NCBI GenBank assembly: GCA_024655865.1
Contig: JANLFM010000004.1
Coordinates: 19,040-83,039 of the forward strand
Length of the DNA: 64,000 bases
Source of the DNA: Caldisericota bacterium
GTDB taxonomy: Bacteria; Caldisericota; JANLFM01
Direction: 5' to 3'
Shown: positions 737 to 58,150 of the stretch, piece after piece
How positions within the stretch are numbered: the first letter of the stretch is position 1
Layout: each line of letters opens with the position of its first letter
Made by a program: the position numbers and the translations under genes
Notes under the pieces: model-generated
The model's input: only the letters and a program-made list of their open reading frames with translations
What the model was told of the DNA's origin: nothing
Databases searched by the model: none

Positions 737-1630
737 TTAATTAAAGTCATCGAACTCGCGTTTTCCTAACCGATTTAACATTCCGTCTTTTAAACCCTTA
801 AGTGTAGCATTAAGCTTTCGTTTCTTATCCGCTTCGCCGATGACAATCTTTATCAGCTCTTTGAACATCTGTACTGCCTCAAACCAGCACCAAGATGGAT
901 AAATATGCCAATAGAGTCTAATAAGATAAATTCGATTTCTGGCTATATAGTAACGTCTGATATATGAATGATTGGAGACCCAAAATTTTCTACCGAAGAT
1001 GGATTTTTGTTCCAAATTACCCAATCGGTGTAACAAGCAAGCTTCAGAAACATATTCTATCAAATAGCCCAAGTAATTGAGCCTGAGACAAAATTCATTA
1101 TCAACCGAGTCAATAAACAAATCCTCTTTAAAAAACCCAATATTAGGGATTAAAGATAAACGAATTAAACTCCCCGAGGTAATTCTAGTGAGGGGATTTT
1201 GTGGAATAGGAATTTTACTCCTGGAGTTTGGTGCATTTACCTCAATGATTTTAGGCGCCAGCATCGCCACGCGCCTCTGTTTATTCGGCGAAAGCTCAGC
1301 GTAGTGTTTTAGCATCTGGGGGACCATCCTTGGCATGGCTTGACTATCTTGATCCAGGGCAAGTAACCAATCAAAATTAGCATCAATGGCAAATCGCAAA
1401 CCCTGGTTGAGAGCAGCGGATACTCCCAAGTTCGATTGATTTAAAATTAGACTAACCCGGTTGCGATCAGCAGCTTGTAAATTTTGGATCAATGAAACAG
1501 TATCAGATTTAGAGCCATTATCAACAATTAGGACATGGTCTACCTGGTCTTTAATAGATTTAAGATTCTCCCGGATCTCTTCCTTTCCATTATATGTGAC
1601 TATAACTGCACAAACTGACTGTGAATTCAT
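737..1630 (-). CDS. Family-2 glycosyltransferase (rhamnosyltransferase-like)
   Basis: Carries VIVTYNGKE...VDNGSKSDT...LALDQD GT-A motifs. It heads the rfb operon on the minus strand. Confidence 0.8.
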   Translation of the reverse strand: MNSQSVCAVIVTYNGKEEIRENLKSIKDQVDHVLIVDNGSKSDTVSLIQNLQAADRNRVSLILNQSNLGVSAALNQGLRFAIDANFDWLLALDQDSQAMPRMVPQMLKHYAELSPNKQRRVAMLAPKIIEVNAPNSRSKIPIPQNPLTRITSGSLIRLSLIPNIGFFKEDLFIDSVDNEFCLRLNYLGYLIEYVSEACLLHRLGNLEQKSIFGRKFWVSNHSYIRRYYIARNRIYLIRLYWHIYPSWCWFEAVQMFKELIKIVIGEADKKRKLNATLKGLKDGMLNRLGKREFDDFN

Positions 1631-1640
1631 GAATTGACCT

Positions 1641-2543
1641 TTAAGCCTTCATAAATTTTGCAAGTTCTTCTTGCCATAAAGGCGCTGGCATAGTTAGAAA
1701 AAGAGTCGAGTAGGAGGGGCGTGGCGCAGGTCGAGATAATTGGAGAGTCTTAATGGGTTCAACCTTTTTAGAAATTTCAGCCAACTGTAAAATAGCCTGT
1801 GCAAATTCATACCAAGAAATCCCGTTCCCTGCATCATCGGTGTAATGGTGAATACCATACCAGCCAGTCTGAATTAAATCAGCGATTGCCCGGGAAAGGC
1901 TTTTGGTGTGCGTCGGAGAGCCTATCTGGTCGTCTACAACCTCCAGGCATTCCTTTTCCCTTGCCAATTTCAAGATCGTAGTGACGAAGTTTTTTCCATA
2001 TTTTCCATAAAGCCAACTTGTGCGCACGATGTAAAAACGGGAACAATGCCACTCTACGAATTTCTCCCCAGCGAGTTTGGTGTATCCGTACCAGTTTATG
2101 GGATTAGGTGGATCCAAGGGGCGGTAAGGGGTTTTCTTCGTGCCATCGAAGACGTAATCCGTGCTGATTTGAACCAGCTCACATTTTTTATCTTCACAGG
2201 CTAAAGCCAGGTTCTGCACTCCTAAGGCGTTAATTGCGTAAGCCAGGTCCCTCTCTACTTCAGCCTGATCCACGTTGGTGTAAGCGGCGCAGTTAATCAC
2301 AATTTGCGGATGAAAATGCTCAATGGCTTCAAAAACTGCCTTGCGGTCAGTAATATCAAGCTCCTGCCTGCCTAAAGGGATTACATCATGCCCCTGGTCC
2401 CTTAAAATTGGGACGAGGTCCTGCCCAAGCATCCCTTTGGCACCGGTGACCATTATCCTCATTATTTGCTCCAGAACCCCTTGCTCTCTTTTTGCAGTCG
2501 TTCCTTTAAGGGCTTCCACCAATGAGAATTGTTCATATACCAC
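1641..2543 (-). CDS. rfbD: dTDP-4-dehydrorhamnose reductase; probable true start at the internal MRIMVTGAKG (~2462), overlapping the rfbB stop
   Basis: Has the MVTGAKGMLG Rossmann motif and RmlD-like length and composition. It is adjacent to rfbB and rfbC. Confidence 0.85.
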   Translation of the reverse strand: MVYEQFSLVEALKGTTAKREQGVLEQIMRIMVTGAKGMLGQDLVPILRDQGHDVIPLGRQELDITDRKAVFEAIEHFHPQIVINCAAYTNVDQAEVERDLAYAINALGVQNLALACEDKKCELVQISTDYVFDGTKKTPYRPLDPPNPINWYGYTKLAGEKFVEWHCSRFYIVRTSWLYGKYGKNFVTTILKLAREKECLEVVDDQIGSPTHTKSLSRAIADLIQTGWYGIHHYTDDAGNGISWYEFAQAILQLAEISKKVEPIKTLQLSRPAPRPSYSTLFLTMPAPLWQEELAKFMKA

Positions 2544-3460
2544 TCCACCGTGCGCCGAATACCTTCCTCAAAGGAAGTAGCTGGGTTCCATCCCAGTTCA
2601 GATTCGATTTTGGTGTTGTCCAAAGCATAGCGAAAATCATGGCCTGGGCGATCGGGGACAAATTCAACCATTTCCTCGCTCTGCCCCATTATTTTCAGCA
2701 CCTCTCGAACAACCTCGATGTTGTGCTTCTCGCATTTCCCCCCTATATTGTAGGCCTCACCAGGCTTTCCTCTCTCCAGGATCAGGTCAATCGCTCGGCA
2801 ATTATCCTCCACGAAAAGCCAGTCCCGGACATTCAACCCCTGTCCATAAACGGGGACCTTCTTTCCCTCAATCAAATTTGTGATCATCAAGGGAATGAGC
2901 TTCTCCGGGAATTGATAAGGCCCATAATTATTCGAGGGTCGAGCAATGCACACTGGAAGCCCATAAGTGGTGAAATAGGATTGAACGAGAAGGTCCGCTG
3001 CTGCTTTGGAGGCGGAGTAGGGAGAACGAGGACGAAAGGGGTCGGTTTCCTTAAAAAGGCCCTCTTCACCCAATGCGCCATAGACCTCATCAGTGGAGAT
3101 ATGGACAAATTTTTTGATCCCGTGTTTCAGGGCTGAATTCAAGAGGACCTGGGTTCCCATAACGTTGGTTTTTATAAAAGGAGCTGCATCCAGAATGGAC
3201 CTATCCACGTGGCTTTCCGCCGCAAAGTGAACCACAGCCTCAACTCCCTCCAGGGCTTCTTCGAGCCTTTCTGCATCTTCCACCCTGCCGTGAACGAATC
3301 GGTATCGGGCCTCATTCTCAATGTCCTTCAGGTTCTCAATGTTCCCGGCGTAAGTCAGGGCATCAAGGTTTACGATTTCCACATCAGGGTGTTTATTTAG
3401 CATGTAGCGGATGAAATTTGATCCAATAAAACCATACCCTCCGGTTACCAGGATTTTCAT
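2462..3460 (-). CDS. rfbB: dTDP-glucose 4,6-dehydratase
   Basis: Begins MKILVTGGYGFIGSNF, carries YSASKAA (YxxxK) and is ~330 aa. Confidence 0.9.
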   Translation of the reverse strand: MKILVTGGYGFIGSNFIRYMLNKHPDVEIVNLDALTYAGNIENLKDIENEARYRFVHGRVEDAERLEEALEGVEAVVHFAAESHVDRSILDAAPFIKTNVMGTQVLLNSALKHGIKKFVHISTDEVYGALGEEGLFKETDPFRPRSPYSASKAAADLLVQSYFTTYGLPVCIARPSNNYGPYQFPEKLIPLMITNLIEGKKVPVYGQGLNVRDWLFVEDNCRAIDLILERGKPGEAYNIGGKCEKHNIEVVREVLKIMGQSEEMVEFVPDRPGHDFRYALDNTKIESELGWNPATSFEEGIRRTVEWYMNNSHWWKPLKERLQKESKGFWSK

Positions 3461-3957
3461 GGCATATCCTCCAATTTAAATTTGGAATGGGGATCGTTCT
3501 CGTGGCGCACCTCATCAACTGGTTCTTTTTTGCCACGCCCAGCGTAGAGGCGATTGGGAAAATTTAGCACCAGTCCATCTTTCCCCCCCACGTTTTTGTA
3601 TGCATGGACCACTCGAGGGGGCACAATCAGGCAAGCAGGCCGCGATTCCCCCAAAAGCAATTTAATATGGAGACCGTAAGATGTAGACTCCGGCCTGTTG
3701 TCCCAGAGATGCACCTCAAAATCAGAGGGCCCGAGGAAAGCGAAAAAATCGCTTTGCTCCAGGTGCTCGTGAGGGCCCCTGGCTATTCCGGGAAGGGTTA
3801 AGGAGATATAGGACATTACCGGGACATATTCCCTTAATCCTGCCTCTTCCAGAAAATCCAGGCGGAAGGTTTCCATAAGCCAACCTCGCTGATCCTGGAA
3901 TTTTGTAACGTCCCACATCACAACTCCTTCAATTTCCAGCTTCTGAATAGGAATCAT
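3457..3957 (-). CDS. rfbC: dTDP-4-dehydrorhamnose 3,5-epimerase
   Basis: Cupin protein of 166 aa, RmlC-like, positioned between rfbB and rfbA. Confidence 0.85.
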   Translation of the reverse strand: MIPIQKLEIEGVVMWDVTKFQDQRGWLMETFRLDFLEEAGLREYVPVMSYISLTLPGIARGPHEHLEQSDFFAFLGPSDFEVHLWDNRPESTSYGLHIKLLLGESRPACLIVPPRVVHAYKNVGGKDGLVLNFPNRLYAGRGKKEPVDEVRHENDPHSKFKLEDMP

Positions 3958-5042
3958 AGCTCCACCTCGCTGTAGTCTCCAACCATTAACCTCAAAGCCC
4001 GATGTTTGTCGTGTCCTTTGATCCTTGCCTGGCGGCCAACCACGCTGTCCTCAATACGCTCCACATTTTCCAGAAAGCTGTTTTCCAGAATTACTGAGTG
4101 TTCTATGTCCACGTGCTTCAAAGTGCACCCGTTACCAATCGAGGTGTAAGGGCCAATGAAGGAATTCTCTACTTGTGACCCTTCTCCGAGAATTGCCGGC
4201 CCTCTGATAGTGGAATCCCGAACTACAGCTCCTTTTTCAATCTGTACCCTCCCGCTTATTGAGGTGTTAATAACTTCTCCCTCAATTTGCCTTTTGGCGT
4301 AAGTATCCAAAACTATGGTGTTCGCTTCTAATAGGTCGTCCTTTTTTCCAGTATCGAGCCACCAGCCCTCCACAATTTTGGGGTAGATTTTGCCTCCGGA
4401 GTTCAAAAGCTCCTGAATGGCATCGGTAATCTCCAACTCTCCACGCCAGGAAGGTTTGATCTTCTCGATTGCTTTGTGGATCTTCGGGGAAAAAATGTAC
4501 ACCCCCACAAGCGCCAAGTTCGAAGGGGGCTCCTTGGGCTTTTCAATTAACCTTTGCACCTTGCCCTGTCCATCCAAAACTGCCACACCAAAAGCCCTAG
4601 GGTCCGGAACTTCTTTTAAGAAGATTACGGCATCGGCTTTCTCCCTCTTGAAAATCTCCATCCCCTCCTGGATGCCTTCCTGCAGTAAATTGTCGCCTAG
4701 ATACATCACAAAGGGGCAATCTCTAAGAAAGGGTTGGGCGATTTTCACGGCATGAGCGAGGCCCGCCGGCTTATCCTGATACACATAAGTAAGCTCCATC
4801 CCCCATTTTGAGCCATCTTTGAGAAAAGCCTTGACGTCCTCCCCTGTCTCCGGGGCGATGATGACCACGGTGTCTTTAATTCCACCCTCTCCCAGATGGC
4901 CGAAGACATAGGAAAGTATCGGCCGATTGGCCACCGGGATTAATTGTTTTGCGGTGGTAAAGGTAAGGGGTCGTAGGCGGGTTCCCTTCCCGCCGCTAAG
5001 AACTAAACCCTTAAATTGATCCATTTCTTCCAACAATGTCAC
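3954..5042 (-). CDS. Glucose-1-phosphate thymidylyltransferase, long form with a C-terminal left-handed beta-helix
   Basis: Has the LSGGKGTRLRPLT nucleotidyltransferase motif. The 362-aa length and C-terminal hexapeptide-repeat region match the archaeal/long type. Confidence 0.8.
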   Translation of the reverse strand: MTLLEEMDQFKGLVLSGGKGTRLRPLTFTTAKQLIPVANRPILSYVFGHLGEGGIKDTVVIIAPETGEDVKAFLKDGSKWGMELTYVYQDKPAGLAHAVKIAQPFLRDCPFVMYLGDNLLQEGIQEGMEIFKREKADAVIFLKEVPDPRAFGVAVLDGQGKVQRLIEKPKEPPSNLALVGVYIFSPKIHKAIEKIKPSWRGELEITDAIQELLNSGGKIYPKIVEGWWLDTGKKDDLLEANTIVLDTYAKRQIEGEVINTSISGRVQIEKGAVVRDSTIRGPAILGEGSQVENSFIGPYTSIGNGCTLKHVDIEHSVILENSFLENVERIEDSVVGRQARIKGHDKHRALRLMVGDYSEVEL

Positions 5043-5079
5043 TCCCTTTTAAATAGTTTAGTAAACTCCTCGGATACTT

Positions 5080-10928: not shown

Positions 10929-11080
10929 ATAAAACTCTGATGATGAGCGCTCTGCTTCGGCTGCCACTTGAAAAGGGCTCTGAAAGGGAATTCACCCCCT
11001 TACCTGTTTGATGTCCATTTTCGGAGGAAGGCTCCCTTTAGGCAAAGCTGGAAATTTAGCTTTAGACTTCTCTCCATGAA

Positions 11081-11146
11081 ATGGTATAATTTTGTTCAGT
11101 AGAGTGAACAAAAATGGTACGATTTTGTTCAGTAGAGTGAACAAAA
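11081..11146 (+). promoter_or_regulatory. Two tandem 33-bp units, each containing the palindrome TTGTTCAgtagagTGAACAA, immediately upstream of the second ATPase gene; also contains TATAAT
   Basis: Read directly: atggtataattttgttcagtagagtgaacaaaa followed by atggtacgattttgttcagtagagtgaacaaaa. Confidence 0.4.
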
Positions 11147-20815: not shown

Positions 20816-20922
20816 AAAAATGGGGACTGTCCCTATATTTTTTATGCGGGATGGGGAGCCGCTTTCCGGCCTCATTTTTCCAATTTTTGCGAATAAAAAA
20901 TGGGGACAGTCCCTATTTTTCA
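20816..20922. promoter_or_regulatory. Two copies of a ~26-bp palindrome AAAAATGGGGAC(T/A)GTCCCTAT(A)TTTTT in the promoter region of the NTase/PMM gene
   Basis: Read directly at 20816-20843 and 20896-20922. The same core recurs at 24830 and 25000. Confidence 0.35.
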
Positions 20923-24829: not shown

Positions 24830-25027
24830 AAATAGGGACTGTCCCCAATTATTTCGAGACTGAGAGAACTCAACAATTCCTGAGTTCCTGTCGCTCGCAT
24901 TAACAGATTAACGACTTTTATGAAAATGATACAATTTTCTTCTAAAAACTAAAAATAGCGTCTCCTAAACCAGATCAGAAAAGAGATAGCGGCCCCACAA
25001 AAAATGGGGACTGTCCCCAATTATTTG
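24830..25027. promoter_or_regulatory. Two further copies of the GGGACTGTCCCCAATTATTT palindrome in the divergent GH57 / glgA promoter region
   Basis: Read directly at 24830-24854 and 25000-25027. Confidence 0.35.
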
Positions 25028-39151: not shown

Positions 39152-39535
39152 ATGATGAGAGCAAGGGCTTTCCAGAATATTTTTGCTCTTTTTATCCTGG
39201 CTGGAGCTCTGGTTTTTGGCTTCCTGCCAAGAAGCGATTTGTTTCCTATCAAGGTGGACATTTACATTCAGGGTGACACTTTCACCTTCCGAGAGATCGA
39301 GAGCGATTTCGAGGAGGGGGTCCGTGCCCTGGACATCGTTGTGGACAACAGCTTTTCGGCCTCGGCCTTTTACGGGGATCTGCTCCTCACGCCAGGCCAA
39401 CACTACCTCGTCTTTCATTACAAGTACCGGGGGGAACTTCTGGATAGCCGTGATTTGAACTTAGAGCCTTCCGGACATAGCGCCATCAGGGTTGACCTCA
39501 ACCGCACGAGCATTCTCAACGTGGAGGCGAAATAG
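39152..39535 (+). CDS. Small secreted/membrane-anchored hypothetical protein
   Basis: An N-terminal signal/TM segment (FALFILAGALVF) is present. I recognise no family. Confidence 0.4.
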   Translation: MMRARAFQNIFALFILAGALVFGFLPRSDLFPIKVDIYIQGDTFTFREIESDFEEGVRALDIVVDNSFSASAFYGDLLLTPGQHYLVFHYKYRGELLDSRDLNLEPSGHSAIRVDLNRTSILNVEAK

Positions 39536-40205
39536 CATGGTGCTTCCCATCTATGATTTAAACAGAAGAAGGTCCTTTCCCTTTATCACTCTGACGCTGA
39601 TTGCCTCTTGCATAATAGTTTTTATCTACCAGCTCACCCTGGGGCTCTCTTCTGAGGAGGGCAACCGTTTTGTGACGCTCTACGGGGCGGTCCCCGCATT
39701 GATCCTTCAGGGACAGAACATCTCCTCCATCTTCAGCTCCATGTTCCTGCACGGTGGCTGGCTCCATCTGATCGGAAATATGTTTTTCCTCTGGGTTTTT
39801 GGCGACAACGTGGAAGATTTCCTGGGACCTGTGCGCTACACCCTTTTCTACTTGCTCTCTGGAGTTGCTGCAGCCTACAGCTACGTTCTCTTCTCAGGGA
39901 ACTACCCCTATACACCCATGATTGGAGCCTCTGGGGCGATATCCGGGGTCATGGGAGCTTACATTTATTTCTTCCCCAGAGCACCGATAATCACGCTGAT
40001 TCCCCTGGGAATTTTCTCAAGGGTGATCCCCCTTCCTGCCTGGATCTACCTCTTAATCTGGTTCGGCTCGCAGTTCCTGATCGCTCCTTCGGAAGGCGTT
40101 GCGGTTCAGGCCCACATTGGAGGTTTCCTGGCCGGAATTGCTCTGGCGATCATCTTTAGCTTAGGTAAACGCCCCACCCCATCCGGGGGTCAGGTCTTGC
40201 AATAA
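39492..40205 (+). CDS. Rhomboid-family intramembrane serine protease (start likely ~39537); last codons read into the REP repeat
   Basis: Carries GASGAISG (GxSG) and the AHIGGFLAG catalytic His, with six TM segments. Confidence 0.75.
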   Translation: MTSTARAFSTWRRNSMVLPIYDLNRRRSFPFITLTLIASCIIVFIYQLTLGLSSEEGNRFVTLYGAVPALILQGQNISSIFSSMFLHGGWLHLIGNMFFLWVFGDNVEDFLGPVRYTLFYLLSGVAAAYSYVLFSGNYPYTPMIGASGAISGVMGAYIYFFPRAPIITLIPLGIFSRVIPLPAWIYLLIWFGSQFLIAPSEGVAVQAHIGGFLAGIALAIIFSLGKRPTPSGGQVLQ

Positions 40206-40462
40206 CACATTTGCTTTTTTCGGCATTCTATGCGCTCTGGGGAGATGCCTTCGGGTGCTTTTAATACTGCCGTAGCGGCCCTCTTTCACCTCTTTTTCAA
40301 TGGAAATTTCCATAAACCTCTATGGCCTGCCCTTTGAGCCTGAAATAGAAGGCAGAAGCTCATGAGCCATTAAACCAATATTTGAAACATAGCCCCTTTT
40401 TAGCCTGAAAACGAAGCAGAAGCCCGTCGAAATTAAAATGTTGGATTGCAAGACCTGACCCC
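40186..40462 (+). mobile_element. 277-bp MITE/REPIN-like element bounded by inverted copies of the 26-bp REP GGGGTCAGGTCTTGCAATCCAACAAT (copy A)
   Basis: Terminal inverted repeats read directly. The interior is ~90% identical to copy B. Confidence 0.7.
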
Positions 40463-40523
40463 GGAGCTTGACAGTGGCACTCGATAAACCTATGCTATTT
40501 TTGCACTTCAAAAAAGGGGGTAA

Positions 40524-41882
40524 GTGGAACAAATGAGAGGGAAGTGGAAAGTTTTACTGGTTTTGGTTTCTCTCCTCGCTATTACAGCTATGATCGCCAG
40601 TTGTGCTGCTCCTACGCCAAGCCCTACACCCACCGCGACTTCTCCTACGCCCACACCGACTTCTCCACCGCCAGAAGTTAATGCGCTTACGGTCTATCAC
40701 TGGTGGACCTCGGGCGGAGAGAAAGCGGCAATTGATGCCCTTGTTAAAGTTTTCGCCACAAAGTATCCCGATGTAGCAATTATGCAGACTCCTGTAACAG
40801 GGGGCGCAGGCTTTACCATGATGGGCATCATTAAGACCCTGGTCTTAGCAGGGGATGCTCCAGATGCCTTTCAGATGCATGCTGGATACGAGGGCAAGCC
40901 CTATTTCGACGCCGGCCTTCTTGACCCCATAGATGATCTCTGGAAAGAAGAGGGCCTGGAAGCCGTAATACCTGAAGTGGTCAGGCACATGTGCCAGTTC
41001 GATGGGCATTATTACTCTGTGCCCGTGAACATTCACAGGGTAAACGTCGTCTGGTACAACAAATCCCTTCTGGATAAAAACGGGATTGACCCCACCACTT
41101 TAACCACCTGGGACGCCTTCTTTGCTGCCTGCGACAAGCTAAAAGCTGCAGGCGTCCAGTATCCCATTCAAATGGGTGAAGCCTGGACGGCCGCTCACGC
41201 TTTTGAACAAATTGTGGCCAGCATGGGCATAGACTTCTATCAGGATTGGATCAACGGCAAGATAACCGCTGCGGATGATCCCAAGCTGACGCAGGCTCTG
41301 GAAATCTTCAAAAAGTACCTGAGCTACGTTAACCCCGATCATGCTGCTTTAACCTGGGATGACGCCACAAAGAGGATCATCACCGGGGAAGGCGCCTTCA
41401 ACATTATGGGTGACTGGGCCAACGGAGAATTTTACGTTGCCAAGATGACGTACGGCGAAGATTACGGAACATTCGCGGTGCCCGGAACTGAGGGGATGTA
41501 CGGCCTCTGCATCGATGTTTTCCAGCATCCCAAGGGGGTAAAGCACCCCACCAACTCCCTGCGATGGCTTAAGGTGGTAGCCTCCAAGGAGGGGCAGGAC
41601 GCCTTTAACCCTATCAAGGGTTCCATCGCTGCCCGGACAGATGCCGATATCTCTAAGTACGGTCCTTACCAGCAATCCGCTATTGCGGACTTCAAAGTAG
41701 CCAAATACATGTTCCCCAGCGTGGTCCACGGGAGCGGAGCCCCAGAGTCCTTCAAGGTTAAGCTGTCCGACATCATCTCTGGGTTTACCACCGACTTAGA
41801 CGTGAATAAGGCAGCACAGGCCCTGACCAGCTATACCAAGGAGATCTCCGGCGAATACACCATTCAGTGGTCAATTAAATAG
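40524..41882 (+). CDS. ABC transporter solute-binding lipoprotein (sugar, family 1) with Pro/Thr-rich linker
   Basis: A lipobox (LAITAMIASC) is followed by a PTPSPTPTATSPTPT linker and an SBP fold. Confidence 0.85.
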   Translation: MEQMRGKWKVLLVLVSLLAITAMIASCAAPTPSPTPTATSPTPTPTSPPPEVNALTVYHWWTSGGEKAAIDALVKVFATKYPDVAIMQTPVTGGAGFTMMGIIKTLVLAGDAPDAFQMHAGYEGKPYFDAGLLDPIDDLWKEEGLEAVIPEVVRHMCQFDGHYYSVPVNIHRVNVVWYNKSLLDKNGIDPTTLTTWDAFFAACDKLKAAGVQYPIQMGEAWTAAHAFEQIVASMGIDFYQDWINGKITAADDPKLTQALEIFKKYLSYVNPDHAALTWDDATKRIITGEGAFNIMGDWANGEFYVAKMTYGEDYGTFAVPGTEGMYGLCIDVFQHPKGVKHPTNSLRWLKVVASKEGQDAFNPIKGSIAARTDADISKYGPYQQSAIADFKVAKYMFPSVVHGSGAPESFKVKLSDIISGFTTDLDVNKAAQALTSYTKEISGEYTIQWSIK

Positions 41883-41934
41883 GTGAAGGTTTCCAAAGGA
41901 GGGGGGAGTACTCCCCCCTCCTTTTTTTCTAAAG

Positions 41935-42825
41935 ATGACGGTTTCCTGGAAGGCTTTCAAAGATAGAATATTAACGATAACCCTTTTCCTGCCCGCCCTA
42001 GTCCTTGTAGGGTATTTTGTCTACTTCAGTATAGGCTGGAATATAGTTGTTTCTCTTTCAGACTGGAAGGGCCTTGTCCCCAGTTATCGCATTGTAGGTT
42101 TTTCTCAATACCTCAAGCTTATAAGTGACCCAGTATTTCTCATCTCGCTGAAGAATAACCTGATTTTAATGGCCCTTTTTGTCCCCGGAAGCCTGGCTCT
42201 GGGACTGTTCCTGGCCATTCTTCTCGATCAAAAGGTAAGGTTTGAGGCGAGCTTCAGGGCCATTTACTTGCTTCCTTTCACCCTCTCCTTCGTGATTACC
42301 GGTTATCTCTGGCGCTGGATGTACAACCCGACCATAGGGGTGATCAATACAATTCTGGATAAAACCGGGCTGGGTTTTTTAAAGAGCGGGTGGATCACCG
42401 ACCCCAACATCGCACTTTATTGCGTAGTTCTCGCTCTGATCTGGCAATTCGCGGGATATACGATGCTCATTTTTCTCGCAGGGATCCGGTCCATTCCTGA
42501 ATCGCACATTATGGCTGCCCAAGTTGACGGGGCCTCGGGATTTTACCTATATAGAAGAATCATCATCCCTCAAATTAAATTTTCCTTCTTCACGGCTTTC
42601 GTAATCCTTATGGTTTTTGCCCTGAAAGCCTTTGACTTCATTTATATTCTTACTTCCGGTGGTCCCGGCTATGCCACGGAAATTCTCCCCCTGACTATGT
42701 ACAAGGAAAGCTTCGCTATGACGCACTTTGCCTACGGATCGGCCATCGCCTCCCTCTTGTTCTTTCTGGTGATGATGATCGTGGTCCCTTACCTTTTGCG
42801 CACCTATTGGAGGCAAGAGAAATGA
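41935..42825 (+). CDS. Sugar ABC transporter permease (MalF/UgpA-like)
   Basis: Six TM segments with the EAA-loop motif (DGASGFYLYRRIIIP). Confidence 0.85.
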   Translation: MTVSWKAFKDRILTITLFLPALVLVGYFVYFSIGWNIVVSLSDWKGLVPSYRIVGFSQYLKLISDPVFLISLKNNLILMALFVPGSLALGLFLAILLDQKVRFEASFRAIYLLPFTLSFVITGYLWRWMYNPTIGVINTILDKTGLGFLKSGWITDPNIALYCVVLALIWQFAGYTMLIFLAGIRSIPESHIMAAQVDGASGFYLYRRIIIPQIKFSFFTAFVILMVFALKAFDFIYILTSGGPGYATEILPLTMYKESFAMTHFAYGSAIASLLFFLVMMIVVPYLLRTYWRQEK

Positions 42826-43646
42826 CTCGCCCCCGGGTCAGTCGCTTTTTCCTGTACCTGATTCTGATTTTCTTCGTCATCCTCTTCCTTCTCCCCCTGT
42901 GGAGCGCCCTGGTGACCGCCCTGAAAACCGAGCAGGACCTGATCTATACCACTCCTATAGAACCGCCTAAAGATCCCACCCTGGAGCCCCTGAAAACCAC
43001 ACTGTCCATAATGGGTCGTCCCCTTTTAAACAGCTTGACCTTCACTTTGGGAGCAACTCTCCTTTCTTGCCTTTTTGGTTCTATTGCAGGATACGTTTTG
43101 ACCAAAATCAGGTTCCCGGGTTCCGGTATTATTTTTGCTTTGATCATTCTGGGCATTTTTATCCCCTATCAGGCAGTCCTCGTGCCTTTAGTGTTGACTA
43201 TGGTCAGGCTCGGCCTCTACAACACCATATGGGGACTGATTTTGACCCATACAGCCTACGGGATACCAATTTGCACCCTGCTTTTCCGGTCCTTTTATGA
43301 GGATATTCCCGACAGCCTGGTTCGAGCCGCACAAATAGACGGGGCCGGCACCTGGACTATATACAGGCGAGTGATACTTCCCCTATCCTGGCTTCCTTTC
43401 GCAGTGGCTGCGGTCTTCCAATTCACCTCTATCTGGAACGACCTGTTAATTGGCCTGGTCCTTTCCCGGGGGATTGAGGCTATGCCTGCATCTGTGGCTT
43501 TAGCGAATCTCAAGGGTGGCTTTGTCGCTCTCTGGAATTTACAGATGGCAGGCACGCTCTGGTATGCTCTACCCGCTTTGATTATTTATTTCGTTTTAGG
43601 AAAATATTTGATAAAGGGATATATGGCTGGAGCGATCAAGGGCTAA
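42807..43646 (+). CDS. Sugar ABC transporter permease (MalG/UgpE-like)
   Basis: Has the EAA loop (AAQIDGAGTWTIYRRVILP). Confidence 0.85.
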   Translation: MEAREMTRPRVSRFFLYLILIFFVILFLLPLWSALVTALKTEQDLIYTTPIEPPKDPTLEPLKTTLSIMGRPLLNSLTFTLGATLLSCLFGSIAGYVLTKIRFPGSGIIFALIILGIFIPYQAVLVPLVLTMVRLGLYNTIWGLILTHTAYGIPICTLLFRSFYEDIPDSLVRAAQIDGAGTWTIYRRVILPLSWLPFAVAAVFQFTSIWNDLLIGLVLSRGIEAMPASVALANLKGGFVALWNLQMAGTLWYALPALIIYFVLGKYLIKGYMAGAIKG

Positions 43647-43647
43647 T

Positions 43648-43673
43648 GGGGTCAGGTCTTGCAATCCAACAAT
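43648..43673 (+). repeat. Solo REP copy between the permease and ATPase genes
   Basis: Exact 26-mer read directly. Confidence 0.7.
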
Positions 43674-43704
43674 TTCAGAGGACTGGAGCGATTAAGAGTT
43701 AAAA

Positions 43705-44820
43705 ATGGCGAGCGTAATCATTAAGAACCTGAAAAAAAGATACGGCAAATCCGAGGCCGTGGACAATTTAAACCTGGAAATCAGGGATGGAGAGTTTTTT
43801 GTCCTTCTTGGTCCGTCTGGTTGTGGCAAGACGACAACCCTGCTTTCTATCGCCGGGTTGATTACTCCTGACGAAGGGGAAATCTGGTTAGGAGAAGAGC
43901 TGGTAACCTCAAAAGAAAAGAGGAGTTTCCTTCGTCCTCAGGAACGTGATGTGGCCATGGTTTTCCAGGATTACGCTATCTACCCCCACCTGACCGTTTT
44001 TAGAAATATTTCTTTTCCTCTGGAAGTGAGAGGGATGAGCAAAGAGATAATAGAGAAAAAGGTCAGGGAAGTGGCCGAAAGCCTGGGCATTGCAAGCCTG
44101 CTTTCCCGAAAACCGGCACAGCTCTCAGGTGGTCAAAGGCAAAGGGTGGCCCTGGCCCGGGCCATCGTGAGGGAGCCCAAAGTTTTCCTCATGGATGAGC
44201 CGCTGTCTAATCTTGACGCCAAGCTTAGAGTGTCTGCCAGGGCTGAATTAAAAAAATTACACGAGAGAATTAAAACAACGATCATCTACGTCACCCATGA
44301 TCAGGTAGAAGCTATGTCCATTGGGGACCGTATTGCTATTTTAAACAATGGGCGCCTTGAGCAGGTGGGAACCCCTCGGGAAGTCTATGACCGCCCCGCC
44401 AATATTTTTGTGGCCTCATTCATCGGCAGCCCGCCCATGAATTTCTTTGAGGGCCTCATCCGGGGGCAAGACGAGAAGATTGTGCTGGATTTAGGTTTTA
44501 CCTCCATAGAGCTTCCCGAAAGAATCAAGAAGGCCATAAGAGAGAACGGGCTTTCTCAGGTAACGGTTGGCATCCGACCGGAACACGTAGAAATCGTAAA
44601 AGAAAGGGGAGCCAAAGGCTTAATTGAAGCCAAAATTGACGTCATAGAGCTCGTGGGAAAAGAGTTTATAGTGCACCTGGACCTTGACAGATGGTCCATA
44701 GTTTCCGTAACCAGTGCCAACCTGGATCTGGTTGCGGGGGAAAAGGTGGGGCTTTTCCTGGACATAAACAGGATGCACTTTTTTGAGAGTCAAACCGGAA
44801 AGGCCCTTTCCACTTCTTAA
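43705..44820 (+). CDS. Sugar ABC transporter ATP-binding protein (MalK/UgpC-like with C-terminal TOBE domain)
   Basis: Has Walker A GPSGCGKTT, the ABC signature LSGGQRQR and Walker B FLMDEPLSNLD. Confidence 0.9.
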   Translation: MASVIIKNLKKRYGKSEAVDNLNLEIRDGEFFVLLGPSGCGKTTTLLSIAGLITPDEGEIWLGEELVTSKEKRSFLRPQERDVAMVFQDYAIYPHLTVFRNISFPLEVRGMSKEIIEKKVREVAESLGIASLLSRKPAQLSGGQRQRVALARAIVREPKVFLMDEPLSNLDAKLRVSARAELKKLHERIKTTIIYVTHDQVEAMSIGDRIAILNNGRLEQVGTPREVYDRPANIFVASFIGSPPMNFFEGLIRGQDEKIVLDLGFTSIELPERIKKAIRENGLSQVTVGIRPEHVEIVKERGAKGLIEAKIDVIELVGKEFIVHLDLDRWSIVSVTSANLDLVAGEKVGLFLDINRMHFFESQTGKALSTS

Positions 44821-44841
44821 ACCACTGAAAAAGTGAACCTC

Positions 44842-45118
44842 GGGGTCAGGTCTTGCAATCACACATTTGCTTTTTTCGGCATTCTATGCGTCCTGGGAAT
44901 GTACCTTCAAATACCTTTAATACTGTCATAGCGGGCCTCTTCTTTTTATCAATTGAAAATTTCAATGAGATTCTCCACAGCCAGCCCTTTGTAGACCGAA
45001 ATAGAAGGCAGAAACTCATGAGCCATTAAACTAATATTTGAAACATAGCCCCCTTTTAGCCTGAAAACGAAGCAGAAGCCGGTCGAAATTAAATTGTTGG
45101 ATTGCAAGACCTGACCCC
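44842..45118 (+). mobile_element. 277-bp MITE/REPIN-like element (copy B), in the same orientation as copy A
   Basis: Bounded by inverted REPs. The two copies directly repeat across the ABC operon. Confidence 0.7.
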
Positions 45119-50626: not shown

Positions 50627-51674
50627 CCTTCATCCCTCTTTCTTCCCCCTCATGGGGTCAGGTCTTGCAATCCAACAATTCTTAAATGTATTAATATTAA
50701 ATGCTAAAAGAGTTTTAAATTTGACGACGGGAAAAATAACAAAGTTCCTGGTGGCTCTTTGGGATAAGGTGAAAAAGTTTAAATTACGAACTCAGGAGTA
50801 TTTCGTCATTATTGGGGGCGTGTTAATTCTGGCCCTCATCCTCTACTTTGTTTTCCACTCTCGCTCTTCTCCCCTTCGGGGCTTTGATTTAAGCCAGGTA
50901 ATTGGCGCCGGGCATTTGAAAAATTCTTCAAGCCCAACCTCGAGCTCCCCACCCCCTACCTTTTCCTCTTCCAGGCCGGAGGCTCCATTAATAGCTTTGG
51001 TGCTCGACGACAACGGCTACAACCTGGAGCAATCGCGAACCTTCATCGCCCTCCCCGTTCCCCTCACGCTTTCCGTCCTGCCCTCCCTCAAGTATTCCAG
51101 GGAAGTGGCACAGGAAGCTCTTGCTAAGGGTAAAGAAGTTATTTTGCATTGTCCCATGGAGTCTCATAAGGGAAACAACTGGTTGGGTCCGGGAGCGATT
51201 TTCACCACAATGAGCGATGAGGAAATTAAAAAACAGATCGAGGCCGACCTTTACGATGTTCCCGGGGCCACGGGAGTTAATAATCACATGGGCACAAAGG
51301 CTACCGAGGACTCGAGGGTGATGAGGGCGCTCCTCTCATATCTCAAAGAGAGAGGGCTTTTTTTCCTGGACTCCAGGGTGACTTCTGGCTCAAAAGCGCG
51401 GGAAATCGGCCTGGAACTGGGAGTTCCCGTTCTGGAAAATGACCTTTCATTAGATCACGATCCAGACCCCCAGGCGATCAGGGAAAAGATGAAAAGGCTG
51501 GGAGAGATCGCCCGGAAAAGAGGGGTAGCCATCGGCATAGCCCACGTCTATACCCGGGACATCCTCCCCCTTCTTTCGGAAGGAATAGGTTACTGGGAAG
51601 AGGAGGGCTTTCAGATGGTGCGCCTTTCCGAAATTATCCCCTATTGGGCGCCTTCACCGGGAGGGAAGCCTTGA
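50619..51674 (+). CDS. Divergent polysaccharide deacetylase family protein (YibQ-like) with N-terminal TM anchor; start probably ~50730
   Basis: Core region GATGVNNHMGTKATED...LFFLDSRVT. Confidence 0.65.
   Translation: MLILHPSFFPLMGSGLAIQQFLNVLILNAKRVLNLTTGKITKFLVALWDKVKKFKLRTQEYFVIIGGVLILALILYFVFHSRSSPLRGFDLSQVIGAGHLKNSSSPTSSSPPPTFSSSRPEAPLIALVLDDNGYNLEQSRTFIALPVPLTLSVLPSLKYSREVAQEALAKGKEVILHCPMESHKGNNWLGPGAIFTTMSDEEIKKQIEADLYDVPGATGVNNHMGTKATEDSRVMRALLSYLKERGLFFLDSRVTSGSKAREIGLELGVPVLENDLSLDHDPDPQAIREKMKRLGEIARKRGVAIGIAHVYTRDILPLLSEGIGYWEEEGFQMVRLSEIIPYWAPSPGGKP
50644..50669 (+). repeat. Solo REP copy
   Basis: Exact 26-mer read directly. It lies inside the annotated 5' end of ORF 50619, so that ORF's true start is probably downstream. 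Confidence 0.7.
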
Positions 51675-56277: not shown

Positions 56278-56367
56278 AATTTTAAATATTATACCATAAA
56301 TCCCACCCCCTCTGAGCTCTGAGGGTCAGGTCTTGCAATCCAACAATGAAGAGGATAAACTTTAACC

Positions 56368-57210
56368 ATGGCCAGACCACTGAGAATCGAATATCCCGGA
56401 GCTGTATACCACGTCACCTCTCGGGGTAACGCCCGCCAGGATATATTCCTGGACTCAAAGGATCGAGAACTTTTCCTCAAAACGCTCGCCGAGGTTGTCG
56501 ATGAGTTTAACTGGCTCTGTCACGCCTATTGCCTCATGGATAACCACTACCATCTCCTTCTGGAAACTCCGGACGCCAATCTCTCCCGGGGCATGCGCCA
56601 GTTGAACGGGGTTTACACTCAAATATTCAACCGCAGGCATAATACTTTTGGCCATCTCTTTCAGGGCCGCTACAAGGCAATCCTGGTAGAAAAGGAACGC
56701 TACCTCCTGGCGCTCTGTCGGTACATTGTCCTCAACCCCGTGCGCTCCGGAAAAGCGAAAGAGGTTCAAGATTGGGCCTGGAGCAGCTATCAAGCCACGG
56801 CCGGCCTCGCTCCGCCCCCTCCATTCCTTGTTACCGATTGGATTTTGGGGCAATTTGCACCCGAGAAGAATAAGGCCCAGGCACTCTATCGCCAGTTTGT
56901 AAATTCCTGGCCGGGCACCTCTCCCTGGGATGATCTCCGCGGACAGATTTATTTGGGGAGCGAGAGGTTCATTAAGGATCTTGCCAATGGGAATGCCCTT
57001 GCCAAAGGAAATGCCCTTACTGAGGTTCCCCGCTTCCAGAGGAACGTGAACCGGCTCGGGCTCGAGGAAATTTTTGCAGGACGACCCCAGGAGGAGGCGA
57101 TTGCCCTGGCTTATCGGGAACATGGCTACACGATGAAGGAGATCGCCGCATACTTGGGAGTTCATTACGCTACTGTCAGCAGGCGCTTACGGCGCTCCCG
57201 CCCCCTGTAG
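56368..57210 (+). CDS. tnpA: RAYT / IS200-like Y1 HuH transposase with C-terminal HTH
   Basis: Carries the HuH motif NHYHLLLE, the catalytic Tyr motif RYIVLNP, an N-terminal YHVTSRGN and the C-terminal HTH EIAAYLGVHYATVSRRL. Confidence 0.8.
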   Translation: MARPLRIEYPGAVYHVTSRGNARQDIFLDSKDRELFLKTLAEVVDEFNWLCHAYCLMDNHYHLLLETPDANLSRGMRQLNGVYTQIFNRRHNTFGHLFQGRYKAILVEKERYLLALCRYIVLNPVRSGKAKEVQDWAWSSYQATAGLAPPPPFLVTDWILGQFAPEKNKAQALYRQFVNSWPGTSPWDDLRGQIYLGSERFIKDLANGNALAKGNALTEVPRFQRNVNRLGLEEIFAGRPQEEAIALAYREHGYTMKEIAAYLGVHYATVSRRLRRSRPL

Positions 57211-57239
57211 GATATTGGATTTTCGATACAGTTCTTATC

Positions 57240-57540
57240 CTGACTGCCTTTAAAGAGGAGGGACCGAAGGGAACACGACTTTGTAAGCGGTATGGGCGCC
57301 TCTGTCAGGAGCGACTTTGTAAACGAAATGGCTCGACTTTGTCGGTGGCGTGACTCGCTTTTGTAAGCAGCACGGGCACCCTTTTTCGGTGTAATGACCC
57401 CCCTTTGTCGGTGGCGTGACTCGCTTTTGTAAGTGGCACGGGCGCCTCTGTCAGGGAAAACGCTCGGCCTTCTCGTCTCTGTCAGTGGCATGACCCCCTT
57501 ATCAGCGGCCTGACCGGCGAAGAGAGGCTTATGGAGAGCC
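57240..57540. repeat. Complex tandem repeats (units ~45-65 bp; CTTTGTCGGTGGCGTGACTCGCTTTTGTAAG x2, TTTGTAAGnGGCACGGGCGCCTCTGTCAG x3)
   Basis: Read directly. Overlapping minus-strand ORFs translate as repeated peptides (SESRHRQ) and are likely spurious. Confidence 0.6.
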
Positions 57541-57639
57541 AATCCTAGCCTTCTCTTCCTATCCCACAGTTTCCTCAGGCGGCTGATTTTGGGCCGGTTC
57601 TGGTTATATCCACCTGGCCTGTTCGGCTCCTTGCAGAAA

Positions 57640-57790
57640 GGGGCCCTTGGCAAAAGACCCTGAGGTGCGAGGCTGAAATTTGATCCGCAGAGGATCCCCG
57701 CTTCCGCAGAAGCTCCTTGCATCCGCGAAGAGCCCTTGCATCCGCAGAAGCTCCCTGCACTCGCAGAGGATCCCCCGCGGTGCACCATCT
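57640..57790. repeat. Short tandem/inverted repeats (GCATCCGCAGAAGCTCC units flanked by CCGCAGAGGATCCCC palindromic arms)
   Basis: Read directly. Confidence 0.5.
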
Positions 57791-57929
57791 AAAGGGAAAT
57801 CCAAAAATGTATGATTGCAAGACCTGACCCTACTGGCTGGCCCTATTGGAATTCTGGAATTGTTGGATTGCAAGACCTGACCCCGTTACATGGCGTTGAC
57901 AGCCAGCCAATTATTTGCTAAAAAGGCCC

Positions 57930-58150
57930 CAAAGCGAAGAAGGGAGAGGAGTAAGCCTCGTCGCTTGCCTCAGAGAGGGGAAGTAAGGTGCGAGTTCCCT
58001 GGCAGGCAGAAGCTGAAGTCGCTCTCTGAGCTGGATGCTGAAATTAAAAGTAGGCTTTCCCGCTGGCTGCGTTAAAACCAAGAGAGCCCATTATGGGAAT
58101 TAAGGTGGTACCGCGGACCTCCGTCCTTGACGGAGGTTTTTCTTTTTAAA
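57930..58150 (+). promoter_or_regulatory. T-box riboswitch leader (Val specifier likely) with intrinsic terminator, preceded by a TTGACA-17-TAAAAA promoter at 57895-57923
   Basis: The T-box sequence AAGGTGGTACCGCGG at 58102-58116 overlaps the terminator hairpin ACCTCCGTCcttgACGGAGGT plus a T-run, which ends 18 nt before the valS ATG. The stem I arms CTCAGAGAGG and CTCTCTGAG pair. Confidence 0.75.

Follow-up and report, generated by a model that had tools for sequence, protein, structure and literature searches.

What are the two 277-bp repeats that bracket a sugar ATP-binding cassette (ABC) importer operon in a Caldisericota bacterium, and did they bring the operon to its place? The repeats lie within a 64,000-nt stretch (hereafter the window) of contig JANLFM010000004.1 (metagenome-assembled genome GCA_024655865.1, positions 19,040 to 83,039, forward strand), 11 kb from a gene related to the tyrosine transposases associated with repetitive extragenic palindromes (REPs), the RAYTs. 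RAYT-like genes lying between long terminal inverted repeats (TIRs) are known as TIRtrons and their enzymes as TIRYTs (Di Nocera, De Gregorio & Rocco 2013, BMC Genomics 14:522, PMC3733652). According to the available text of that paper, the TIRs share a GGGGWSAS start and are dispersed as single, dimeric and grouped copies, and REPs carry a GTAG/CGTC tag. Most TIRYTs belong to TnpA_Y1 subclass 2.1, marked by a tail resembling HTH_23, HTH_28 or Bac_DnaA_C, as far as the available text of a later classification goes (Quentin et al. 2018, PMC6006769). We consider that the two repeats are probably non-autonomous, TIR-bounded miniature elements of such a TIRYT/TIRtron system, that is, TIR dimers resembling miniature inverted-repeat transposable elements (MITEs), since the same 27-nt ends flank the TIRYT gene of the window (56368-57210). 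As judged from their sequences, the units are an additional case of the known, little-studied TIRYT-associated TIR repeats.

Two direct repeats with inverted ends

A preliminary description of this DNA placed the two copies at 40186-40462 and 44842-45118 in direct orientation, and alignment gave exactly these coordinates. Its estimate of about 90% identity was a little high for what are real repeats: over 281 alignment columns the copies are 85.4% identical, the right 136 nt reaching 93% and the left 100 nt 85%. The alignment starts at the first G of GGGGTCAGG and stops at the last C of CCTGACCCC; beyond these points the similarity drops abruptly. The same description had each copy ending in inverted REP 26-mers. 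Inverted arms are present, consisting of GGGGTCAGGTCTTGCAAT plus 9 further bases; these 27-nt arms are 89% complementary and 223 nt apart. The term REP is a misnomer, since an isolated end unit is no palindrome and does not fold (0 to -1.6 kcal/mol, not better than shuffles). The GTAG/CGTC tag is absent from its conserved core, which starts GGGGTCAG. As single-stranded DNA (ssDNA), each whole unit folds with a TIR-TIR stem closing the structure (left, -47.2 kcal/mol, z -3.5; right, -45.3 kcal/mol, z -4.7).

Inside the units, the repeat scan reported a 22-nt direct repeat in the left copy (40330-40351 vs 40395-40416, 82% identity) in place of the internal palindromes described earlier, and reported none in the right copy. 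The right unit appears to have a 7-nt leftward extension, GAACCTC (44835-44841), which we assign to it because the homology of two related contigs (L148 and L158) to the window is lost at 44834/44835 and because GAACCTC also precedes the TIR of a homologous element on another contig (L136). Compared in all frames, neither unit matched the TIRYT protein significantly (tblastn; chance matches only), and an Rfam gathering scan of the window detected no RNA family in them, its sole match being the T-box of the valine-tRNA ligase (ValRS) gene.

A TIRYT gene with the same ends

At up to one mismatch, the window contains nine copies of GGGGTCAGGTCTTGCAAT, where shuffles lead one to expect 0.06. By context, these copies form two dimers, two solo TIRs and a group of three at the TIRtron. 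The preliminary description had rightly called the repeats MITE/REPIN-like, as they are TIR-bounded and non-coding, and had not seen the RAYT-type Y1 gene that carries the same ends. The left TIR of the TIRtron, AGGGTCAGGTCTTGCAATCCAACAAT, begins at 56322, 46 nt ahead of the ATG. The predicted protein matches Y1_Tnp in Pfam (PF01797, 4e-14), its residues 244-278 match the helix-turn-helix (HTH) families HTH_23, HTH_38 and Sigma70_r4_2, and it scores 86.1 bits against the NCBIfam model REP_Tyr_transpos (NF047646; cut-off 80). Of the structures in the PDB, only E. coli TnpA_REP (4ER8) is related to it; in their alignment, HYH (H60-Y-H62) stands opposite HMH, and RYIVLNPV, which contains Y119, opposite DYIYINPV. 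From general knowledge of RAYT motifs we take Y119 to be the catalytic tyrosine. The HUH and tyrosine motifs of this putative transposase are thus intact by alignment.

The window was compared with contigs of four lineages: W (the window and L148), X (L144, L158 and L159), Y (L151-L154 and L160) and Z (L155, L156 and L168). DNA identity between their flanking genes and those of the window is mostly about 66-80%. W and Y have the TIRtron at a syntenic site. Relative to Z it is an insertion: the syntenic site there, between the genes for a 213-aa protein and ValRS, is a 345-bp gap with neither TIRtron nor TIR. Assemblies break at TIRs: three Logan assemblies stop within 550 nt downstream of the TIRYT gene, two of them (L122 and L123) at window position 57885. 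A second TIRYT, 82% identical to that of the window, lies at another locus in the same samples (contig L164).

Between the TIRYT stop codon and the right TIRs, about 600 nt (57211-57804) contain direct repeats of 37-54 nt with a spacing of 66-80 nt (57273-57455) and a 19-bp tandem repeat in four to five overlapping copies (57683-57777). The repeat copy number varies, since strain L122 lacks 57310-57418. This insert is lineage-specific, because in most homologues from other phyla the TIR adjoins the stop codon. Just 3' of the TIRtron, a T-box leader (RF00230, 113 bits, 57928-58131) precedes the ValRS gene and is 85-86% conserved in Y and Z.

TIRs accompany TIRYT homologues in many phyla

A scan with the 16-mer GGTCAGGTCTTGCAAT, using one genome per species, returned at least 120 loci. 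Among the matches listed, the hosts include Nitrospirota, several proteobacterial classes, Acidobacteriota, Actinomycetota, Elusimicrobia, Rokubacteria, Planctomycetes, Parcubacteria, Bipolaricaulota and others. A TIRYT homologue is present at 17 of the 120 loci listed (48-64% identity; full length in 11), and at these the TIR usually lies 20-45 nt ahead of a MARPLR start or adjoins the stop codon. Over 149 instances of the core, the flanking consensus is (G)G before and NNN-(A/G)CA-T after it. The 16-nt core is unchanged across phyla while the accompanying TIRYTs are only 48-64% identical. A literature search for the TIR string found no paper.

Inverted TIR pairs elsewhere are mostly 50-180 bp long, which makes the 277-bp unit long for the family and agrees with the earlier remark on its unusual length; a metagenome scan for pairs 226-256 nt apart returned only 21 loci. 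Three of these 21 loci (L137, L138 and L140), with TIR pairs of about 270 bp, retain the first 31-48 TIRYT codons, which identifies them as internal-deletion derivatives of TIRtrons. The source contig of the window (JGI 3300038743, Ga0417229_000165) is not among the loci listed for either scan, and it was the sole contig recovered when the ProRS and RtcB proteins of the window were looked up by exact match. As vehicles of spread, plasmids and viruses were considered and rejected: a homologue occurs in 29 of 72,556 plasmid records, one of them near full length (47% identity), and the 16-mer in only 26 stretches among viral contigs.

These data bear on the nature of the ends. If the units were ordinary MITEs of a DDE transposon, with the Y1 gene lying between such ends by chance, their TIRs, length and lack of coding capacity would be classical MITE anatomy, and the ends of Tn3-family elements also begin with GGGG. 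However, the same ends occur at constant distances from at least 11 full-length TIRYT homologues of unrelated phyla, the ~270-bp pairs just described derive from TIRtrons, and no target duplication was seen, so that this explanation is very improbable.

A classical REP/REPIN-RAYT system, in which the ends would be REPs and the doublet a REPIN (a hairpin-forming REP doublet) moved by a group 2/3-type RAYT through hairpin recognition, has several points in its favour: the TIRYT passes the NCBIfam cut-off for REP-associated tyrosine transposases, its gene occupies a fixed syntenic site in two lineages and the doublets form long ssDNA hairpins. We nevertheless regard it as quite unlikely. The defining palindrome is contradicted by a single unit that has neither self-complementarity nor a GTAG/CGTC tag, and the ends fit the GGGGWSAS class of TIRs, which the available text of the TIRtron paper keeps apart from REPs (PMC3733652). 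Furthermore, the available text of the 2018 classification assigns each tnpA_REP its own specific REP family and reports no REPs near subclass 2.1 genes (PMC6006769), whereas the core found here is unchanged across many phyla.

Solo TIRs and whole units recur at different loci

Solo TIRs clearly insert by themselves. The solo TIR at 43648, already noted inside the operon by the preliminary description and confirmed in the permease 2/ATPase gap, occupies the same position in X (L158) and in L148, where the sequence of Z is unrelated; the one at 50654 is present in W (window and L148) and Y (L151) and missing at the same alignment position from X (L158) and Z (L155). At the left unit, the rhomboid protease open reading frame (ORF; 39492-40205) extends six codons into the left TIR, its stop codon TAA (40203-40205) being TIR bases 18-20. 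The C-terminal tail of the rhomboid protease (40120-40205 region) is different in every one of the four lineages, so the insertion replaced the gene's original 3' end.

Whole units recur as well. Further copies, which we sought in related contigs, lie at three non-orthologous loci: the orthologous rhomboid/SBP (substrate-binding protein) gap in X (L144), the region upstream of ProRS (L148, L151 and L152), and a position between a membrane-protein gene and a ClpC-like gene (L136). The last contig belongs to the same species-level ValRS cluster (90% identity) as the window organism and represents a third locus in a close relative. Its full-length unit is 72% identical to the lineage X copy over 287 nt. 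In an alignment of seven members, about 75 nt on the left and 50 nt on the right are conserved around a variable middle, and the two units of the window form a separate subtype. We consider the 277-bp unit to be a presumptive mobile family, not a local duplication.

On the opposite view, whole units would not move, and the two copies would result from local duplication or gene conversion between two spacers that had independently acquired solo TIRs. Solo TIRs insert by themselves, as noted above, and contig L164 (ENA ERZ27247969 k141_1827275; 1392-5079) suggests that TIR pairs can also form around local DNA: it has nine exact TIR cores within 8.8 kb beside the second TIRYT, among them three TIR pairs of 238-292 bp with interiors unrelated to one another. 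Against this view, the similarity of the window copies stops exactly at the TIRs, and a full-length homologous element occupies the unrelated ClpC locus. In addition, the ProRS-site element of L148, a 99% identical sister, has a different interior, which argues that the right copy of the window arrived as a unit. This alternative is therefore highly unlikely.

Other origins of the 223-nt interior were considered. An internal-deletion remnant of the resident TIRtron was dismissed because tblastn matches were at chance level and alignment to the 3' region of the TIRtron was no better than that of shuffles; the likeness of GCAGAAGC in the interior to the 19-bp tandem repeats of the TIRtron is likewise due to chance. 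A native rhomboid/SBP spacer trapped by two solo TIRs gained no support, as the interior has no significant similarity to the element-free region of lineage Z, although at a background divergence of ~75% such a similarity may have been lost.

The operon probably predates the units

The preliminary description correctly recognised the flanked operon (SBP_bac_1, two BPD_transp_1 and one ABC_tran/MalK protein) and proposed that the repeats had captured it or marked a recombination boundary. Capture is unlikely, since Z (L155 from GCA_024655965.1, L156 and L168) has the same operon in the same place, in the order rhomboid-SBP-permease-permease-ATPase-ProRS, with a 67-bp ATPase-ProRS gap and no TIR within about 30 kb. 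In X, two contigs (L144 and L158) have the operon and, beside the left unit, one additional solo TIR; the solo TIR ahead of the ATPase gene is present too, and no unit precedes ProRS. The clean element-free junctions in Z and in L159 of lineage X indicate that the operon-ProRS adjacency is older than the units and that the operon was not captured. A CTTGACAG...TATG block upstream of the SBP gene is also conserved in Z, which indicates that the left unit went in upstream of the promoter and is not its source. A unit-borne promoter for SBP or ProRS was rejected as well, the SBP promoter-like site lying outside the unit and being conserved without it.

The suggestion of a recombination boundary fared better. 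Y lacks the operon and has the arrangement rhomboid-[solo TIR + one unit of about 300 bp]-ProRS; the homology of L151 to the window ends at 40212 and restarts at 45091, inside the outer TIRs of both window units. For Y, the best reading is a deletion from a left unit to a right one, because its left junction has a solo TIR plus unit as in X and its right junction reads CCCC-GG...CTACTTTACC as in the window. A second set of breakpoints is found in L148, which is 99% identical to the window strain and matches it up to 44834 and again from 45091. The 3,955 bp between these positions consist of a Kelch/Amidase cassette and an element whose interior is different and whose left TIR is degenerate. 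The most plausible history of the window strain is that it received a subtype-B unit (with GAACCTC) after the ATPase gene and then lost the cassette between two right TIRs.

The cassette itself encodes Kelch-repeat and Amidase_6 proteins on the minus strand and measures 4-4.5 kb (L148 1190-4898; L158 3438-7936). It is missing from the window, where its position would be 44834/44835, and varies even between strains that are 99-99.9% identical (window/L148 and L159/L158). In L158 the 4.5-kb cassette lies before ProRS, and the 99.9% identical sister L159 lacks it.

Mosaic divergence around the units

In the comparison of the window with X, identity is 84-93% in the ABC genes and 66-84% in the flanks, and the steps in identity coincide with the positions of the units. 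The comparison with Z shows no such contrast (operon 72-80%, flanks 67-79%). Compared with Y, identity peaks beside the right unit (ProRS, 92.5%) and decays with distance. By these profiles the region is a recombination hot spot with tract ends at or near the units, for which either TIR homology or the enzyme may be responsible.

The TIRYT ORF shows a similar discordance. Between W (56368-57210) and Y (L160 4001-4843), it is 95% identical at the DNA level, with a synonymous divergence (dS) of 0.153 and a dN/dS of 0.13, whereas synonymous divergence is saturated in its syntenic neighbours MetK, Asx-tRNA ligase, a 208-aa gene and ValRS (pS 0.69-0.76, dS at least 1.9). Identity is only 73-79% over the TIRtron's non-coding 3' part. 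The low dS suggests a recent horizontal replacement or conversion of the ORF alone, by exchange between the lineages. An overlapping antisense gene was rejected as the cause, since the 236-aa antisense ORF is codon-aligned and not conserved, the longest open stretch in homologues being 74-251 codons.

On a further view the system is domesticated, and the TIRs would be binding sites of an HTH-Y1 protein with a host role in chromosome structuring or regulation. The unchanged TIR core in many phyla, the solo TIR retained at the same site across lineages with saturated synonymous divergence, the low dS and dN/dS of the TIRYT relative to its neighbours, and the rarity of the family on plasmids and of the core in viral contigs would all fit. 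On the other hand, the native SBP promoter lies outside the unit, a close relative with the same operon has no units, and the units go with gene loss, not with conserved regulation. Domestication is compatible with non-autonomous elements of a TIRYT/TIRtron system and, as an account of the locus, unlikely.

A bolder possibility is that the TIRs, besides being transposon ends, are sites of TIRYT-catalysed strand exchange. Blocks flanked by TIRs, for example an operon together with one unit, could then leave one genome as circles and integrate into another at a TIR already present there. Compatible with it are the two independent rearrangements (L151 and L148) that break exactly at TIRs, the ABC block that is more similar between W and X than its flanks, with steps at the unit positions, and the TIRYT ORF that is far younger than its syntenic neighbours. 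If true, an HUH tyrosine enzyme would here drive the exchange of cassettes, and the outcome would be like that of IS26 translocatable units or integron cassettes; we consider this unlikely.

A working model and its difficulties

In the model that we favour, in which the units are non-autonomous elements of the TIRYT/TIRtron system, the TIRYT would mobilise them. It would recognise TIRs either as duplex through its HTH or as an ssDNA TIR-TIR stem, and its HUH/Tyr centre would break and rejoin single DNA strands, so that solo TIRs as well as TIR-bounded units would move and no target sequence would be duplicated. Such single-strand cutting and rejoining would explain why no target duplication is detectable. 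Units would have inserted into two intergenic gaps around the ancestral sugar ABC operon and, as direct repeats, would then have served as breakpoints, once for the loss of the operon that left one unit in a sister lineage and once for the replacement of a 4-kb segment in a sister strain. These later deletions may have been homologous or enzyme-mediated exchanges between direct copies.

Several points weigh against this model. No demonstrated transposition or cleavage by any TIRYT, and no biochemical or functional study of one, was found in the literature. Target duplications were sought, and no direct repeat was seen at either unit or at the TIRtron, the element-free relatives being too diverged for exact junctions. 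Comparison of the 223-nt interior with the resident TIRtron, with the TIRYT protein and with the corresponding spacer of lineage Z, which has no unit, gave no significant match. The count of TIR copies covers only the 64-kb window and scattered contigs. The cassette indel at the ATPase/ProRS gap that separates L158 from L159 has no TIR at its ends, so that not every rearrangement here needs the units. Finally, we infer the polarity of the events in Y and in the window strain; the flanks of W, X, Y and Z are all about 70-80% identical and do not resolve the branching order, so that the polarity of the operon loss rests on parsimony.

Comparison with known systems

The locus resembles described TIRtrons in having a predicted Y1/HUH protein with a C-terminal HTH, a gene flanked by GGGGWSAS-type TIRs (here GGGGTCAG) and the same TIR as singles, dimers and groups. 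Unlike the TIRtrons in the available text of the papers cited above, the window has a dimer with a 223-nt interior and conserved subterminal regions that belongs to a multi-locus family in a Caldisericota host, and breakpoints of operon-scale rearrangements are located in its TIRs.

As in REPIN-RAYT systems (Bertels & Rainey 2011; RAREFAN), the repeat flanks a transposase gene whose chromosomal site is fixed, and there are intergenic, non-autonomous inverted doublets that can pair in ssDNA. The locus differs in an end unit with no palindrome and no GTAG, in a length of 277 bp against the ~100 bp quoted in the preliminary description, and in a 16-nt core common to many phyla instead of one repeat family per transposase. 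As to the single-copy, vertically inherited transposase gene of REPIN-RAYT systems, the observations are mixed: the TIRYT gene is syntenic in W and Y, is absent from that site in Z, has a dS of 0.15 and has an 82% identical paralogue or xenologue elsewhere.

IS200/IS605 elements have subterminal hairpins, not TIRs, and a transposase without an extra domain, according to the available text of Quentin et al. (PMC6006769). The Y1/HUH chemistry, here predicted from sequence, and the lack of detectable target duplication, which fits single-strand transposition, are common to both; the ends of the present elements are TIRs, and the protein carries an HTH tail. Like classical bacterial MITEs, the units are short, non-coding and TIR-bounded, with homologous copies at non-orthologous sites, and like composite units flanked by insertion sequences (IS26-type translocatable units), direct copies bracket genes and are substrates for deletion or exchange. 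Unlike both, their predicted partner enzyme is of the HUH type and not DDE, and no target duplication was seen.

TIRYT/TIRtron systems have had a name since 2013 and a place in a classification since 2018, but we found no functional study of them in the literature. The present locus is a natural experiment that combines solo ends and long TIR-bounded units of one family with what may be their master gene, to which the sister lineages add element-free sites, an operon deletion leaving one unit and a cassette replacement at a unit boundary. It offers testable substrates for the question whether duplex-type inverted repeats are mobilised by an HUH tyrosine enzyme that carries an HTH tail, and indicates that TIR repeats may shape gene content in an uncultivated thermophilic phylum.

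Features of the window

Table 1 Coordinates of the TIR-related features and of the sugar ABC importer operon, counted from the first letter of the window.
Feature	Coordinates	Strand	Description
Left unit	40186-40462	+	TIRs 40186-40212 and 40436-40462; interior 223 nt, non-coding
Right unit	44835-45118, including 7-nt extension	+	TIRs 44842-44868 and 45092-45118
GGGGTCAGGTCTTGCAAT sites	40186+, 40445-, 43648+, 44842+, 45101-, 50654+, 56322+, 57814-, 57867-		Motif scan
Solo TIR	43648-43675	+	58-nt gap, permease-2 stop to ATPase start
Solo TIR	50654-50681	+	Gap between DegV and polysaccharide-deacetylase genes
TIRtron	56322-57884	+	Left TIR 56322-56348, TIRYT gene, ~600 nt repeat-rich non-coding, two right TIRs
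TIRtron right TIRs	57805-57830 and 57858-57884	-	
TIRYT gene	56368-57210	+	280 aa, MCR4432955.1; RAYT-like Y1/HUH tyrosine transposase, C-terminal helix-turn-helix
Carbohydrate ABC importer operon	40524-44820	+	Enclosed by the two units; Pfam and NCBIfam
SBP (SBP_bac_1)	40524-41882	+	
Permeases (2x BPD_transp_1)	41935-42825 and 42807-43646	+	
ATPase (ABC_tran/MalK type)	43705-44820	+	
SBP promoter-like site TTGACA-17-TATGCT	40468-40496	+	Begins 5 nt beyond the right end of the left unit

Other repeats occur in the window. A 25-nt repeat, AAATGGGGACTGTCCCCAATTATTT, is present in four copies forming two pairs about 4 kb apart (20818-20922 and 24830-25026); it contains the palindrome GGGGAC-N-GTCCCC and is unrelated to the TIR family. 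A 33-nt unit, AAATGGTAYRATTTTGTTCAGTAGAGTGAACAA, occurs as two tandem copies that are 94% identical (11079-11144), with a weak third copy at 24924.

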